Below, piece by piece: positions 843 through 48,030 of a stretch of 64,000 nt of DNA. Each line of letters starts with the position of its first letter. Positions within the stretch are counted from its first letter, which is position 1. Both the position numbers and the translations under genes were made by a program. The notes beneath the pieces were generated by a model. That model saw nothing but the letters and a program-made list of their open reading frames with translations, was not told where the DNA came from and did not search any database. The DNA comes from a virus. The stretch is taken from the IMG/VR virus record IMGVR_UViG_3300031911_000002, positions 1 through 64,000 of that record; one strand, 5' to 3'.

Positions 843-3800
843 AGCACGGTCTACGACGTGTGCGCGATGGTGCTCGGCAAGTACCACGTGCAGGTCAGCG
901 ACCGGGTCATCCTCGGGGCCGCCAGTGACAACCACCCGACCGAGATCATGGACCTGCTCGGGGCGCGGTACGCGGTCCTGGAGGAGACCCCGGAGGCGAG
1001 GCGCCTGGACACCAACCGGGCCAAGAAGCTGGCGGGCACGCGGGAGATCACCGGCCGCCGGATCCGGCAGGACCCTGTGACCTTCGAGGCCACCCACAGC
1101 CTGTTCATCAACTCCAACCACAAGCCCCTGGTGGACGAGACGGACCACGGCACGTGGAGGCGCCTCGCCCTGATGGTGTGGCCGCACACCTACCGGAAGC
1201 GTCAGGAGGACCTCAGGGGGCCGAACGACCGCCTGGGGGACCCGACGCTGCGCCTGCGGCTCAAGGAGGACCCGCAGGCGCGGGAGGCCGCTCTGGCGTG
1301 GATCGCGGAGGGCGCGCGGCGCTGGTACGAGATGGACCGGATCATGCCGCCGGTCCCGGAGCGGGTGGAGGAGGACACCCTCGCGTGGCGCAAGGAGAGC
1401 GACCCCGTGCTCAGCTTCGCCGACGAGCACCTCCAGTTCGACCTCGACGCCTGCATCGCCGGACAGGAACTACGGAGCGTATTCAACGAGTGGCTCGTCA
1501 AGGTCAAGGGAGCGCGCGAGTGGGGCGACAAGACGTTCCTCGCGCGCTTCCAGGGGCACGACGCGATGACCACTCATTCGGTGGTCTACAAGGTCGTCAA
1601 GAACCCTCAGCGGCTGTCCTCGCGGGAGGGCGGCGAGGGGCCGAAGACGGGGACCGTCCGGGCGTGGCTCGGGCTGAAGTGGGCGACCGGAGGCGACGAT
1701 TCCGGAGAAGGTAACGAGGAGGTAAAAGACCCGTTCGGAGGGGGTGACACCAAGATCGGTTACAGCGGTTACACGTCGCCGGTTAACGGGAAGATTCCCT
1801 ATCGCATAGCCGTTAACTTTGGAAGTGTAACCGGTGTAACCGGACCGGAGTCCGCTTCTGAAACGATCTCCGATCCGGCCCCCGAGGAGTACCCGGACGA
1901 CCCCTTCGCAGAGGCGGACCCGGAGCCCTCCCCGGCCCCCTCCCTCCCCGTCCTGCGGGGCGCGGTCGGGTGGGACCTGGAGACCCCCTCGGCCAAGCAG
2001 CTGTTTACGTTCCGTAGCGACGAGGCGGCCCCGTACGCCCGGCTGTGCGGCGTGGTCGACGAGGACGGGCAGCGGGTGATCGTCAACAGCCCCGAGGAGC
2101 TGATCACGCTCCTGGAGCGCGCGCCGGTCATCCACGCCCACAACGGCTTCCGGTTCGACCTGATGGCGCTGGCGTGGCACCACGGTGCCGACTACGACCG
2201 GCTGGCGGCCAAGCTGTGGGACACCTACGTGGACGCGACCGTGCTCGACCCTCCGGGCGCCAAGGGACAGAAACCGTGGGCGAACGAGGGGTACTACGGG
2301 CTGGACCAGGTGGCGGAGCGTCTCGGCCTGCCCGGCAAGACGGACCGCCTCCCCGAGCTGGCCAAGGAGTTCGCCTCCCCCGGCCTGACCGGCAGGGAGG
2401 CGGAGGAGGACGGCTACGGCCGCATCCCCGTGGACAACGAGCGCTACCGGTCGTACCTGATGGGAGACCTGGGGGCACAGCAGAGCGTCGGCCAGAGGAT
2501 GCTCTCCGTGCCGGAGAGGATGGACTACCGGCGCCGGGAGCAGAGGGTGGCGCACATCCAGAACCGGATGACCCTGTCCGGCTGGAAGGTGGACGTCCCG
2601 CTCCTCGACCGCCTGGTGCGTGAGGAGCAGGACAAGGTGGCGGAGTCCCTCGCGTGGCTGCACGAGAACGCCGGGGTGCCTCTGACCGAGACCAGGACCC
2701 GTGGCCGGAGAGCGGCCAAGGAGACCTACGAGGTGCCCCGCAAGAGCCCACTGGGCTCGAACGCGGGCAAGGAGGCTCTCATCCGTGCCTTCGCCGAACG
2801 GGGCGCCTACTCGGTGCCCCGGACCGAGTCCGGCGTCCTCGCCCTGAACAAGGACGCGCTCGGGGAGGGCTCGTACATGGTCGGCAAGGGCGGCCGGGGA
2901 CAGCTGCGGCCGGGGATGCTCAACCCCCGCGTCCTGGCCACGTTCGCCGACCGGGGAGCCGACGTGGAGGCCATCCGTGAGCTGTGCGACCACATCAAGC
3001 TGGTGACCACCTCGGTGCAGAAGTACGCCGAGATCCAGCAGCACCTGATCGGGGACCGGGTCCACGCTCACGTCGGCGAGACCCAGGGATCCCGCCGATG
3101 GGCCATGGTCAAGCCCTCGGTCACCAACATGGGCAAGCGGGGCGGCAAGGTCGCGCAGAGGGCGCCCATGATCGCCGACGACGGGTGCGTGCTGATCGCG
3201 TTCGACTTCGATCAGGTCGACATGCGCGCGTTCGCCGGGCACTGCGGTGACCCGGCGTACGTGGGGATGTTCGTGCGGGACGAGGACCCCCACAGCATGA
3301 TCGCCGACATGGTGTTCGGCCGCCACGACGGCGAGTGGCGTGAGCGGGCCAAGGCGTCCGGCCACGGCTGGAACTACGGCCTGAGCGTGAACGGCCTGGT
3401 CAACTCCGGCATCGAGCGGGAGCTGGCGGAGCGGTTCGACGCCGGTATGAACGAGGGGTACCCGGTGCTGTGCTCCTGGCGCTCGGACGTCCGGGCACAG
3501 GGCGAGGCCGGTCAGCTCCTGGACAACGGCTTCGGCGCCCTGATGCGCTGCGACCCCCACCGTGCCTACACCCAGGCACCGGCACTGATGGGCCAGGGCA
3601 CCGCTCGGGACATCATGTGTGAGGGGCTGCTGCGGCTGCCGGAGGAATACATCCCGTGGCTGCGGGGCGTGGTGCACGACGAGGCCGTGCTCAGCGTGCC
3701 GGAGGACCGGGTGGAGGAGTGCATCGCCACCGTGACGGCCGCCTTCACGATGGACCTCGCGGAGATCACAGGGGGGCGCCTGACGAGCGTCCCGATCAAG

Positions 3801-43113: not shown

Positions 43114-43323
43114 GGTGTTCTCCCTCGTACCGTTGTGGTCCGGCCGGGACCGGGTCGGCCCCGGCCGGTCGTACGCCCCGCCCCGGAGGGCCGGATACCC
43201 GTTGCTCCGGGCGCAGAGAGGCCGGTTACGGGGCCCACCCGGCGACGACTTCCCCTTTACCCTCGTGCCCCGCTGGCTGCGGCGAGGGAGGCTGTCTCGC
43301 GTCGCTGAACGATCTGCCTTGCG

Positions 43324-43396
43324 TGCCGCCCGCAGGGATCGAACCTGCGGCCTCCGGGGTTTCACTCCGGCGCTCTCCCGACTGAGCTAGGGCGGC
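43324..43396 (-). tRNA. tRNA-Phe(GAA) with atypical anticodon stem-loop
   Basis: GCCGCCC/GGGCGGC acceptor, GCTC/GAGC D-stem, CCGGA-GTGAAAC-CCCGG anticodon arm, GCAGG-TTCGATC-CCTGC T-arm; CCA not encoded. Confidence 0.8.
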
Positions 43397-43399
43397 GAC

Positions 43400-43427
43400 C
43401 CGGCCGGACCCCGGAGGGTCCGGCCGG
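43400..43427 (-). terminator. 12-bp stem with cUCCGg loop; near-duplicate at 43660-43683
   Basis: CCGGCCGGACCC-TCCG-GGGTCCGGCCGG on the minus strand. Confidence 0.5.
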
Positions 43428-43431
43428 TGGA

Positions 43432-43641: not shown

Positions 43642-43690
43642 GGCCGCTCCCTCGGTCGGGGCCGGACCCCGGAGGGTCCGGCCGGGTCGG

Positions 43691-44887: not shown

Positions 44888-44915
44888 GATCTGGTCTCTC
44901 TTCCTTGGTCGGTTG

Positions 44916-44931
44916 TGCTTTACCTAAATCG
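44916..44931. promoter_or_regulatory. Operator-like 16-mer
   Basis: TGCTTTACCTAAATCG, about 30 bp upstream of the DUF932 start. Confidence 0.6.
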
Positions 44932-44978
44932 TCCCCCGGTCCCGGAGGGCGAAACCTCCGGGACCGGGACTCTACCGG

Positions 44979-45709: not shown

Positions 45710-45969
45710 GTTCGGTCCTTCCTTGATCCGGATCGGCCGTACGGCCGCCTGAGGGCCGTTCTCCGGCCCCGGTGACCCGAGGGCCACGGAGACGGAGAAC
45801 GGCCGGGAGGCGGCAGCAGGGACGTGCGGAGGGGTCAGTCCTGCCCGGCGTACTCCGCGCCCCAGCGGCCGTAGTCGTCCACGTGGATCGGCACCGTGAC
45901 GCCGCTGTGCTCGATGGACCCTGCGGGGTACTTGTCCATGATCTTCCTTCCGTTGACCGGATGCTTGCG

Positions 45970-46038
45970 TGGGCCTGGCCGGGTTCGAACCGGCGTCACG
46001 GGAGGGGTCCCCCTGCTCTGCCTCTGAGCTACAGACCC
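45970..46038 (-). ncRNA. tRNA-like RNA with 4-nt loop replacing the anticodon loop
   Basis: GGGTCTG TA GCTC AGAGGCA GAGC A GGGGG-ACCC-CTCCC GTGAC GCCGG-TTCGAAC-CCGGC CAGGCCC A. Confidence 0.75.
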
Positions 46039-46074
46039 ATGCTCGGGATCGCGGCTCCCGGCGGCCGTCGTGCG

Positions 46075-46380
46075 TCAGTTCCACTGTGCGGAGCGCTCCA
46101 TGCGGCCGGTCGCCTGTGCGGCCCTCTGCGAGCGCATGTCGCCCGTCAGGCACTGCTCGGCGATGGATCCGCCGGAGCACATGTCGCAGGCCGCGACGTG
46201 GGCCAGGTACAAATCGAATGCCGGACGGTACGGCAGGGCCAGGGACACCTGCAACGCGAACGGCTCCGCGTCCGGCTCGTCGGGGTCCATCTCGGGGATG
46301 GCACCGGCCCGGCGCCAGTAGGTGTCGTGCTGGTCCTCCCAGTCCTCGTCGGTCAGGGTCTCGAACGTCCTCGCCGTCAT
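46075..46380 (-). CDS. Hypothetical protein
   Basis: GAGGG RBS; H...C..C..C motif. Confidence 0.55.
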   Translation of the reverse strand: MTARTFETLTDEDWEDQHDTYWRRAGAIPEMDPDEPDAEPFALQVSLALPYRPAFDLYLAHVAACDMCSGGSIAEQCLTGDMRSQRAAQATGRMERSAQWN

Positions 46381-46409
46381 GGTCGTCCCTCTCTGGTCTG
46401 TGGTCTGCG

Positions 46410-46484
46410 TGCCCCCGGCCCGACTTGAACGGGCCGTACTCTCTACGCTCCGCCGGACAGCCGGTGATCACTCGTAGCGGGGGC
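46410..46484 (-). ncRNA. tRNA-like RNA keeping acceptor stem and T-arm only
   Basis: GCCCCCG...GCCCG-TTCAAGT-CGGGC CGGGGGC A; the interior is one CTACG/CGTAG plus CCGG/CCGG stem. Confidence 0.6.
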
Positions 46485-46518
46485 GGCCGGATCACGGGCT
46501 CCGGCCGGGCCGTCGTGC

Positions 46519-46920
46519 TCAGCGGTTCAGGTTGTGGTGCTGCGCCCACACGGGGCACGTCCCGGCGTGCAGGGTCGGGCTGGGCTCCCCGCGACGGCCG
46601 CAGGTGCAGGACGCGCCCTCCGACATCTGGCGGACCTCGTCCCGGTACTCACCCTGGTAGTAGGCGAGCTGGTGCCGCGCCATGTCGGCCGCCGTGGTGT
46701 CGCCCCACTCCGCCGGGTCCACGGCCGCGACCGCCTTGGCGGCCGACTCCGCGAGGATCTCCGTGGCGCTGGCGTAGTCGGTCTGCTCGTCCAGAGCGGC
46801 GAATACCCCGGAGTTGTCCAGGGTGTTGAAGGCTGCGATGACCTCCGGCCGCTCCCGGTCCTCCGACGTGATGGAGCGGAGTACGGCCAGAGCCTTGATC
46901 GTCTCGTCGCTGTAGGTCAT
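46519..46920 (-). CDS. Hypothetical protein
   Basis: GACCACGGA-AGGA leader; C-terminal CTC..H..C. Confidence 0.55.
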   Translation of the reverse strand: MTYSDETIKALAVLRSITSEDRERPEVIAAFNTLDNSGVFAALDEQTDYASATEILAESAAKAVAAVDPAEWGDTTAADMARHQLAYYQGEYRDEVRQMSEGASCTCGRRGEPSPTLHAGTCPVWAQHHNLNR

Positions 46921-47003
46921 GGTCGATCCTTCCGTGGTCGCCTGGCTCATCAGGACCGGGTGGCGCCCGGCCGACGGCCCCGCCGGAGCGGGGCCGTTTC
47001 GCC

Positions 47004-47243
47004 TCAGTCTCGCGAGTCGCGCTCCAGGCGTCCCTCGTACCCGGCCGCCCACCCGTTCCCCCAGTGGTGCCACTGCACGGCCGACATCAGCCGGAGGGCC
47101 TCCACGTAATCCAGTCCGGCCGCCTCCGCCAGCCGGACCAGGACGTCCTCGGCCTCCGACCCCTGCTTGCCCTCCGTCCGGTCTCCGACCGGCTGACCGG
47201 CGATGCGGCGCGCTTCGTCCAGGATGTGCGTGATCTCGGGCAT
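47004..47243 (-). CDS. Hypothetical protein
   Basis: GACCACGGA-AAGAGG leader. Confidence 0.5.
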   Translation of the reverse strand: MPEITHILDEARRIAGQPVGDRTEGKQGSEAEDVLVRLAEAAGLDYVEALRLMSAVQWHHWGNGWAAGYEGRLERDSRD

Positions 47244-47329
47244 GTGGTCCTCTTTCCGTGGTCCGGGGCCTGAGCAGACCCTCACAGGGGGCACGGGTGG
47301 CGGAAGCCTACCGTGCCCCCGAGCGGGGC

Positions 47330-47947: not shown

Positions 47948-48030
47948 GGTCGTTGCTCCTTGGTCTTCGGGATGAGCCGGTCGGCCCGACAGGGCCCACG
48001 TACGAGACGCGGACCCGACTGGAAACCGGA

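Follow-up and report, generated by a model that had tools for sequence, protein, structure and literature searches.

A tRNA-shaped RNA without D arm and anticodon loop between accessory genes of a Streptomyces-type phage: fold, relatives and a possible role in transcript processing

The locus and the element

The stretch of DNA analyzed here (the window) comprises positions 1–64,000 of the 75,955-base-pair (bp) IMG/VR virus record IMGVR_UViG_3300031911_000002, which is 92% complete, has a G+C content of ~70% and comes from a soil Streptomyces-type phage. On its minus strand, between two genes without assigned function, lies a 75-nucleotide (nt) element that runs from 46484 (G1) to 46410 (the discriminator A75) and is shaped like a transfer RNA (tRNA). 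The element is very probably a real, selected and structured RNA, and covariation among its relatives supports, at the level of sequence comparison, a three-way junction consisting of an acceptor stem, a T arm and one central arm closed by a 3-bp helix (Table 1).

A sequence-only reading of the locus had described the acceptor stem GCCCCCG/CGGGGGC with a discriminator A, the T arm GCCCG-TTCAAGT-CGGGC and a length of 75 nt, all of which are present on the minus strand. CCA is not encoded, and CGCA directly follows the discriminator. The 43 nt between the acceptor 5' strand and the T arm contain CUACG, CGUAG and CCGG-CUGU-CCGG, from which the same reading had built one stem in place of the D and anticodon arms. 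The pairing of CTACG (46477–46473) with CGTAG (46447–46443) is possible and belongs to the minimum-energy fold of RNAfold (−37.3 kcal/mol; z = −1.81; a stability matched by 11 of 200 shuffles), but it is not conserved, only three of its five pairs being possible in the closest relative. The replacement of two arms by one held, with UAC/GUA as the closing bases instead. By this folding model the G+C-rich element is only weakly above chance; what raises it above chance is its conservation in 14 distinct related sequences with compensatory changes, so that the structural conservation on which the sequence-only reading was staked was indeed found.

Standard tRNA finders had been expected to miss the element, and ARAGORN called two tRNA genes elsewhere in the window and none at 46410–46484. 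In its default, mitochondrial and tmRNA (transfer-messenger RNA) modes it called none of the 14 sequences, while in low-score mode two were called with conflicting identities (Pro, Arg). The comparison with Rfam, which had been proposed as a check, gave no match to Rfam 15 at the locus, either at the gathering cut-off (29 bits for the tRNA family RF00005) or at E ≤ 10 in a 5-kilobase (kb) search, and no family member reached any Rfam gathering score.

Table 1. Features of the element and its surroundings, in window coordinates.
Feature	Positions	Strand	Basis
Whole tRNA-shaped RNA	46410..46484	-	sequence, R1 score, family alignments
Acceptor 5' strand GCCCCCG, pairs with 46411-46417	46478..46484	-	7/7 pairs constant across 10 sequences, in part a consequence of the search
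Single C8 linker before closing helix	46477	-	sequence
Closing helix 5' strand UAC, positions 9-11	46474..46476	-	register scan, partner shuffles
Central arm: lower stem GUGAUC/GAGCGU with one A.G mismatch, bulged A20	46445..46471	-	helix 3 pairing and double changes
Apical hairpin CCGG-CUGU-CCGG; 4-nt loop CUGU at 46457-46460	46453-46464	-	sequence, covariation
Purine-rich joining strand AGAGA (family: NGA..GA)	46440..46444	-	alignment
Closing helix 3' strand GUA	46437..46439	-	register scan, partner shuffles
2-nt linker CG, closing helix to T stem	46435-46436	-	sequence
T arm GCCCG / loop UUCAAGU / CGGGC	46418..46434	-	5/5 pairs invariant
Acceptor 3' strand CGGGGGC	46411..46417	-	sequence
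Leader: GCACGACGGCCC, then hairpin GGCCGGA / loop GCCCGUGA / UCCGGCC abutting G1	46485..46518	-	conserved in six members
Trailer, 29 nt: CGCAGACC to Shine-Dalgarno-like GAGAGGGA, then ATG at 46380	46381..46409	-	sequence, flank comparison
Upstream gene, function not assigned; start ATG 46950 or ATG 46920	46519..46950	-	homologues upstream of the element in L004, L006, L143, L144, L146, L159
Downstream gene, 101 amino acids, function not assigned	46075..46380	-	sole homologue found: L004
Type II hammerhead ribozyme, one gene upstream	46936-47004	-	Rfam RF02276, 44.6 bits
Second tRNA-like gene	45969-46038	-	ARAGORN 'Gly-ccc'; Rfam tRNA 48.4 bits
Leader of second tRNA-like gene	46039-46074		variant of the element's leader
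tRNA-Phe(GAA), canonical	43323-43396	-	ARAGORN and Rfam
12-bp GC hairpin before tRNA-Phe	43397-43431
Operon gap with strong hairpin	44888-44978	-	15-bp perfect stem, z = -3.55
Operon gap with strong hairpin	47244-47329	-	stem of at least 10 bp, z = -2.38
Operon gap with strong hairpin	43642-43690	-
Operon gap with strong hairpin	47948-48030	-

Relatives and covariation

Related loci and contigs compared with the window are labelled with L-numbers. An exact 25-mer covering the T arm and the 3' acceptor strand led to two other viral contigs (search 1). The central hairpin motif, used without the acceptor or the T arm, returned 11 stretches from viral contigs, two of which are genuine besides the window's own (the contigs of L003 and L006; search 2), and a second central-motif scan of viral contigs returned eight stretches, two of them genuine, including the new member L159, which is of the L144 type; no member with another acceptor stem appeared in these scans of viral contigs. 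A slightly degenerate 25-mer was searched in bacterial contigs (one genome per species) and found at 119 places (search 3), 115 of which are real tRNA genes according to ARAGORN (94 tRNA-Leu, 19 tRNA-Arg, one Tyr and one Ser); the T arm and 3' acceptor of the element thus also occur in genuine tRNA-Leu and tRNA-Arg of many bacteria. Among the four uncalled places, three (L059, L111, and L123) are 3' halves of tRNA-Arg or tRNA-Leu in which the 5' acceptor strand is missing, and which look like ordinary remnants of integration (attachment, att, sites), while at the fourth (L096), on a 473-kb contig of Streptomyces sp. ISL-10, the element has a 74-nt homologue. The tally of these calls adds up to 120 for the 119 places, an extra uncalled entry probably having arisen from parsing. 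Finally, a gapped pattern of acceptor and T arm, with C fixed at position 8, yielded 13 metagenome stretches (search 4). A covariance model (R1) was built from four members; it scored the window element at 97.7 bits and matched only the L096 copy in 151 Streptomyces genomes, where stricter filters were applied and weak members were possibly missed. Rfam 15 does not contain the family, and no member was found in 50,697 GenBank phage records, against which blastn (near and distant modes) with the 1.2–1.4 kb region gave zero matches and short queries gave only five partial matches covering ≤ 27% of the query, none for the L144 type.

After removal of identical copies, the family counts 14 distinct sequences, which come from contigs of uncultured phages and of soil and, in one case, from a Streptomyces chromosome. 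Ten of them can be aligned: the window element, L003, L096, L149, and L152 (72–75 nt), L006, L140, L144, and L148 (92–94 nt), in which an extra variable-arm hairpin is inserted at the joining strand, and L143 (77 nt). What the remaining four (L145, L147, L151, and L002) share with the rest is limited to the acceptor, C8, the closing helix and the T arm, their middle being wholly different. For ten of the fourteen members the constancy of the acceptor, C8 and the T stem was imposed by the search patterns, only the window element, L003, L006, and L159 having been found without the acceptor/T pattern; in these four no change is seen in the acceptor and T stems, while the stems of the apex and the variable arm covaried. 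The 77-nt sequence in L143 (215–291, minus strand) derives from the 93-nt L144 type by a 16-nt deletion that takes half of the variable hairpin together with the 3' strand of the closing helix; the copy may be in decay.

The closing helix was located by a register scan for a 3-bp helix over the 14 sequences, anchored where the acceptor stem ends and the T stem begins. When positions 9–11 were paired with the three bases separated from the T stem by 2 nt on its 5' side, 35 of the 42 possible pairs formed, nine of the 14 helices being complete, as compared with 27 of 42 in the next best register; when partners were shuffled among the sequences, none of 20000 shuffles reached 35 pairs (mean 21.8). 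The helix occurs as UAC/GUA, UAG/CUA, AUG/CAU, AAG/CUU, CAA/UUG, CCU/AGG, and UAU/GUA, and C11-G46 of the window is G11-C46 in L149, its closest relative. Linkers of 1 nt and 2 nt are present in all 14 members, the 1-nt linker being fixed by the search pattern.

Covariation of the full structure was tested on a MAFFT alignment of the ten alignable members. The consensus structure has 93.5% of its cells paired (86.5% in shuffles) and eight pairs changed on both sides, and its covariation score of 0.152 (0.074 in shuffles) was attained in none of 500 shuffles, while sliding the partners by 1–3 columns lowered pairing to 31–47%. In the central arm (helix 3) 88.7% of the cells are paired and four of ten pairs show double changes; in the extra hairpin of the long forms (helix 4) the corresponding values are 95.8% and two covarying pairs. 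The apical stem is found as CCGG/CCGG, CCCC/GGGG, CCCU/AGGG, and CUCC/GGAG, closed by variable loops of 3–4 nt (CUGU, GUA, UGA, UCA), and below it follow a U-A and then an S-S' pair (UC..GA or UG..CA); UGA before and ACAGC after the apical stem are conserved. RNAalifold by itself found the acceptor, T and apical stems again and placed the lower arm in a different two-pair register, which makes the lower-arm register the least secure part of the structure.

Two further explanations were discarded on the sequences themselves: protein coding, as the length of the element varies by non-multiples of three and the changes are compensations of the RNA type, and a kink-turn in GUGAUGA, whose opposite strand was seen by eye to lack the required GA beside the stem.

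Genomic setting

The element always lies between genes and in the same orientation as its neighbors, and in the window it would be transcribed within a minus-strand polycistronic message of small accessory genes; the accessory region around it encodes an HNH endonuclease, a DUF932-like protein and a DUF6011 protein. The upstream stop codon is located 8–41 nt before G1 in 14 of 16 loci, i.e., those with a callable upstream frame (L145 is cut by the contig end and L002 has only a frame of eight amino acids), and in most loci a ribosome-binding site and a start codon, read from the flanks, follow 18–67 nt past the discriminator, the automatic call of the downstream start being different for L006 and missing for L151. 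The neighboring genes vary between family members, and a protein-guided search with the downstream gene of the window returned no relatives. As L144 and L146 carry an identical 93-nt element while both flanking genes differ, the element behaves as a cassette.

The leader begins right after the upstream stop codon (TGA, 46519–46521) and is conserved in the window, L003, L006, L143, L148, and L149, its 7-bp hairpin abutting G1 in all of these except L143, where it is one base away. Trailers are alike in the window, L148, and L149 despite different downstream genes. Between ACGGC and the loop of the leader hairpin a pseudoknot pairing of 3–5 bp is possible, the 5' partner of which is invariant. 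In L002, G1 of a 114-nt family member is abutted by a 20-bp perfect inverted repeat around ~50 nt (2841–2935, minus strand).

Other junctions of the same operon carry structured RNA as well. The hammerhead ribozyme of the window runs from the stop codon of the 47004–47243 gene to ~15 nt before ATG 46920, hammerheads are also present in relatives (L004 1973–2039, L146 155–214, and L143 814–874), and four operon gaps contain strong hairpins. In L148 and L149 the junction is swapped: the homologue of the upstream gene is followed by a hairpin alone, which in L148 shares its first 20 bases with the leader, and the tRNA-like cassette is found at the next junction. A scan of 45800–47300 for sigma-70-like promoters, which covers actinobacterial promoter types poorly, found none.

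A second tRNA-like gene is situated 370 nt away. Its acceptor, D and T arms are normal, while its anticodon arm consists of a GGGGG/CUCCC stem with a 4-nt loop, which marks it, from its predicted fold, as a non-decoding gene without an anticodon. At the syntenic place in L003 (~3115–3150) only the T arm and the 3' acceptor strand are found. The hairpin that precedes tRNA-Phe stands after the upstream stop codon and ends 3 nt before the 5' end of the tRNA, and the CGCA trailer is common to all three tRNA-shaped genes of the window. Unusual tRNA genes were also seen in related contigs: L008 7277–7367, L009 4331–4421, L005 2794–2875, and L002 2080–2179 (82–100 nt, Rfam tRNA scores of 50–56 bits) have a hairpin inserted in, or extending, the anticodon arm. 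ARAGORN called no tRNA on L002, which holds another tRNA-shaped sequence without a D arm (1836–1909, minus strand; acceptor GCCCUGG).

With regard to the occurrence of the phage, 96–100% of the words sampled from 45900–47100 of the window were found in four runs of 2022 (X2–X5) under one non-metagenome organism code, and in X2 the region lies in one identical contig at a depth of 21; the phage or its host is thus present in those samples. Three RNA runs, which were picked by a species label shared with phage-positive DNA runs and in which the phage is not known to be present, gave 0 reads from the region.

Candidate roles and known RNA classes

We tentatively favor, with a probability of about 0.45, the reading that the element is a tRNA-type processing mark, which by analogy with known precursors would split the polycistronic phage messenger RNA (mRNA) by means of host RNase P and RNase Z. 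A 12-bp stack of acceptor and T stem ('minihelix') with a T loop and a trailer lacking CCA is the structure recognized by RNase P, RNase Z and the enzyme that adds CCA, and the predicted fold of the element offers these substrate features, i.e., the 12-bp coaxial stack, the T loop and a single-stranded CCA-less 3' trailer. Excision by the two enzymes is proposed because of these features together with the precedents of YrlA, mascRNA and mitochondrial tRNAs. The cut by RNase P would fall at G1 and that by RNase Z behind the discriminator A, so that the upstream and downstream cistrons would be separated; the upstream mRNA would then end in the leader hairpin abutting G1, which would act as a protector of its 3' end, and the downstream mRNA would begin ~29 nt before its ATG. 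In such a scheme the element would do the job of a hammerhead and complement the plain hairpins of the gaps, giving a gene-by-gene punctuation of the phage operon. The processing reading is favored by the sub-types with a wholly different middle (L145, L147, L151, and L002), which still keep the 7+5 bp stack and the UUCRA T loop. Also in its favor are the covarying structure that cannot decode, the co-oriented position between genes, the hairpins at or near G1 and before the genuine tRNA-Phe, the hammerhead and hairpins in other gaps of the operon, and the junction swap in L148 and L149.

Several observations weigh against this reading. The consensus fold of the window element is, at −31.2 as compared with −37.3 kcal/mol, ~6 kcal/mol less stable than the CUACG/CGUAG fold, the single-sequence minimum-energy fold departs from the consensus in most members, and five members (L006, L143, L144, L151, and L152) have mismatches in the closing helix. 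That the acceptor stem, C8 and the T stem never vary is largely a product of the search patterns. The leader hairpin is missing from L096, L140, L144, L145, L147, L151, and L152, hence its role as a 3'-end protector cannot be universal. A pure processing signal, moreover, needs neither the conserved UGA and ACAGC motifs of the central arm nor an invariant acceptor identical to that of a host tRNA-Arg, and both point to an added or different function.

Such a function could be exerted in trans, which is the main rival reading. It is possible, although on balance unlikely, that the excised ~75-nt RNA, to which CCA would probably be added, is a stable mimic of the host tRNA-Arg acceptor end without an anticodon that occupies or titrates a tRNA-binding protein, for example a host defence toxin acting on tRNA acceptor ends, a modification enzyme or a phage protein; cleavage of the mRNA would then only be the route of its biogenesis, which makes this explanation compatible with a punctuation role. 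The identity of the acceptor stem and discriminator with those of Streptomyces tRNA-Arg(CCG) and tRNA-Arg(UCU) fits a mimic, as does the constancy of the acceptor and T stems beside covarying apical and variable-arm stems in the four members found independently of them, while the conserved unpaired bases of the central arm and the fixed 1-nt and 2-nt linkers suggest an L-shape under selection. The second anticodon-less gene with the same leader 370 nt away is in agreement with it, and actinobacterial toxins that modify tRNA acceptor ends (MenT/AbiEii) are described in the available portions of PMC7450476 and PMC10435456. Against a mimic, no partner protein is evident, the neighboring genes vary from member to member, and genes for TROVE/Ro60, RtcB or a CCA-adding enzyme were not found in the phage record; furthermore, four sub-types have an entirely different middle, and the central arm has no complementary target in the window. 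A tRNA-repair or CCA module was rejected because no RtcB or PolyA_pol (CCA-adding) gene was found in the record, and an antisense regulator because a search of the window allowing ≤ 3 mismatches found neither another copy of the central 26-mer nor a complementary site. We consider it improbable that Streptomyces phages make the excised RNA in bulk as a decoy, a copy of the host tRNA-Arg acceptor end with neither anticodon nor D arm that would sequester a defence enzyme directed against tRNA 3' ends or sensing tRNA shape, and that it is one of a wider set of phage 'tRNA shells' with exchangeable middles. Were the RNA to act in trans, it would represent a new kind of phage counter-defence RNA.

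Explanations without an RNA function of this kind are ranked lower because they fit the covariation and the genomic context more poorly. We give little credence to a decaying, functionless tRNA-Arg pseudogene, in which drift has altered the D and anticodon arms and will alter the remainder: the reduced T arm and 3' acceptor strand of L003 at the place syntenic to the second tRNA-like gene, and the L143 variant that lost the 3' strand of its closing helix through the 16-nt deletion, are what decay would leave behind, but compensatory changes in three separate helices of members located between unrelated genes are not, and neither are the identical copies of L144 and L146 in different surroundings or insertions and deletions that are non-random and comprise whole hairpins. 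A role at the DNA level, either as an attP-like tRNA fragment for integration or as a boundary sequence for the recombination of modules, appears less credible still. The 25-mer does match real tRNA genes in 115 of 119 places, true att remnants of the same tRNA exist (L059, L111, and L123), and a cassette of leader, element and trailer between unrelated genes is what would be expected at mosaic joints; yet the att remnants lack the 5' acceptor strand that all 14 members keep at pairing distance, no tyrosine or serine integrase (PF00589, PF00239) was found in the 92%-complete record, and no Streptomyces tRNA has the T stem of the element, the sole Streptomyces record among the 119 places being the element itself. 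Covariation of the RNA type, tolerant of G-U and restricted to one strand, would not be predicted for a DNA site, and the position is internal in phage genomes, e.g., in L096/L139, where phage-type genes lie on the upstream side. The least likely of all is a transcription terminator or attenuator made of GC-rich hairpins, with an incidental likeness to tRNA; GC-rich hairpins do fill other operon gaps and one stands alone at the equivalent junction of L148 and L149, but a U tract is lacking, a terminator scan of 46381–46520 came back empty, and a canonical T loop, an exact 7+5 bp stack and a discriminator would be unexpected.

If the processing reading holds, actinobacterial phages would use host tRNA-processing enzymes, ribozymes and hairpins as interchangeable punctuation of accessory-gene operons, which would explain the non-decoding tRNA-shaped genes of such phages and would call for annotators to look past tRNA finders. 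A compact three-way-junction tRNA mimic supported by covariation would also serve as a test case for the in vivo requirements of RNase P and RNase Z.

Among the known RNA classes, canonical tRNA (RF00005) shares with the element the 7-bp acceptor, the discriminator A, the 5-bp T stem, the UUCRA T loop and the absence of an encoded CCA, and the length of the family (72–94 nt) is tRNA-like. The element differs in having no D arm and no 7-nt anticodon loop, in C instead of U at position 8, and in a helix that joins positions 9–11 to the strand of the variable region; its T stem (GCCCG/CGGGC) is not that of Streptomyces tRNA-Arg either (GCAGG/CCUGC). It cannot decode because the apical loop offers only 3–4 variable bases, and a decoding tRNA is ruled out by the missing D arm and the missing 5-bp anticodon stem and 7-nt loop. 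In tmRNA, too, the tRNA-like domain is a three-way junction, in which the acceptor and T arm are combined with one long helix replacing the anticodon arm, but the element has C3-G70 rather than G3-U70, neither a tag frame nor pseudoknots, and a single nucleotide instead of a D-loop-like strand after the acceptor; together with the empty ARAGORN tmRNA mode and the absence of an Rfam tmRNA match, this excludes a tmRNA. The YrlA RNA of Mycobacterium smegmatis, a tRNA-like non-coding RNA with a 7-bp acceptor stem that is cut by RNase P and gains CCA according to the available text of Chen et al. 2014 (PMC4201824), resembles the element as a non-decoding tRNA mimic of actinobacteria and their phages. 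YrlA as described there has D- and T-like arms, a Ro60-binding stem and an adjacent Ro60 gene, whereas the element has no D arm, and a Y RNA was rejected because no TROVE/Ro60 gene (PF05731) was found in the 92%-complete record with a control search working, and no Rfam match was obtained. The likeness to tmRNA and Y RNA that the sequence-only reading had limited to the outline therefore went no further than that.

Searches of the literature on phage tRNA-like and structured RNAs brought up no account of an element like this; the main text of a 2023 catalogue of viral RNA candidates (PMC10690425), as far as available, names no class without a D arm or an anticodon, while its supplementary tables (10,006 candidate viral RNAs) might list the motif. 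The RNAs C and D of phage T4 are small RNAs encoded in the tRNA region whose function is given as unknown in the available part of PMC3014915; they are set beside the element by description only, host, G+C content and context being unrelated. A closer parallel in arrangement is offered by hammerheads flanking prophage genes, which in the portion of Perreault et al. 2011 available (PMC3088659) are proposed to process long phage transcripts into single-gene mRNAs, and which, like the element, are intergenic RNAs co-oriented within a phage operon of small genes. The element differs from them in that it contains no known self-cleaving motif and would need host RNase P and RNase Z. In MALAT1/mascRNA and in the tRNA punctuation of mitochondria, an embedded tRNA-like structure is cut by RNase P and the upstream RNA keeps a protective 3' structure. 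These systems are eukaryotic and have no sequence relation to the element, their Rfam models being unmatched there, and mascRNA retains a D arm; if the processing reading is true, the idea of tRNA punctuation would extend from mitochondria and MALAT1/mascRNA to bacterial viruses.

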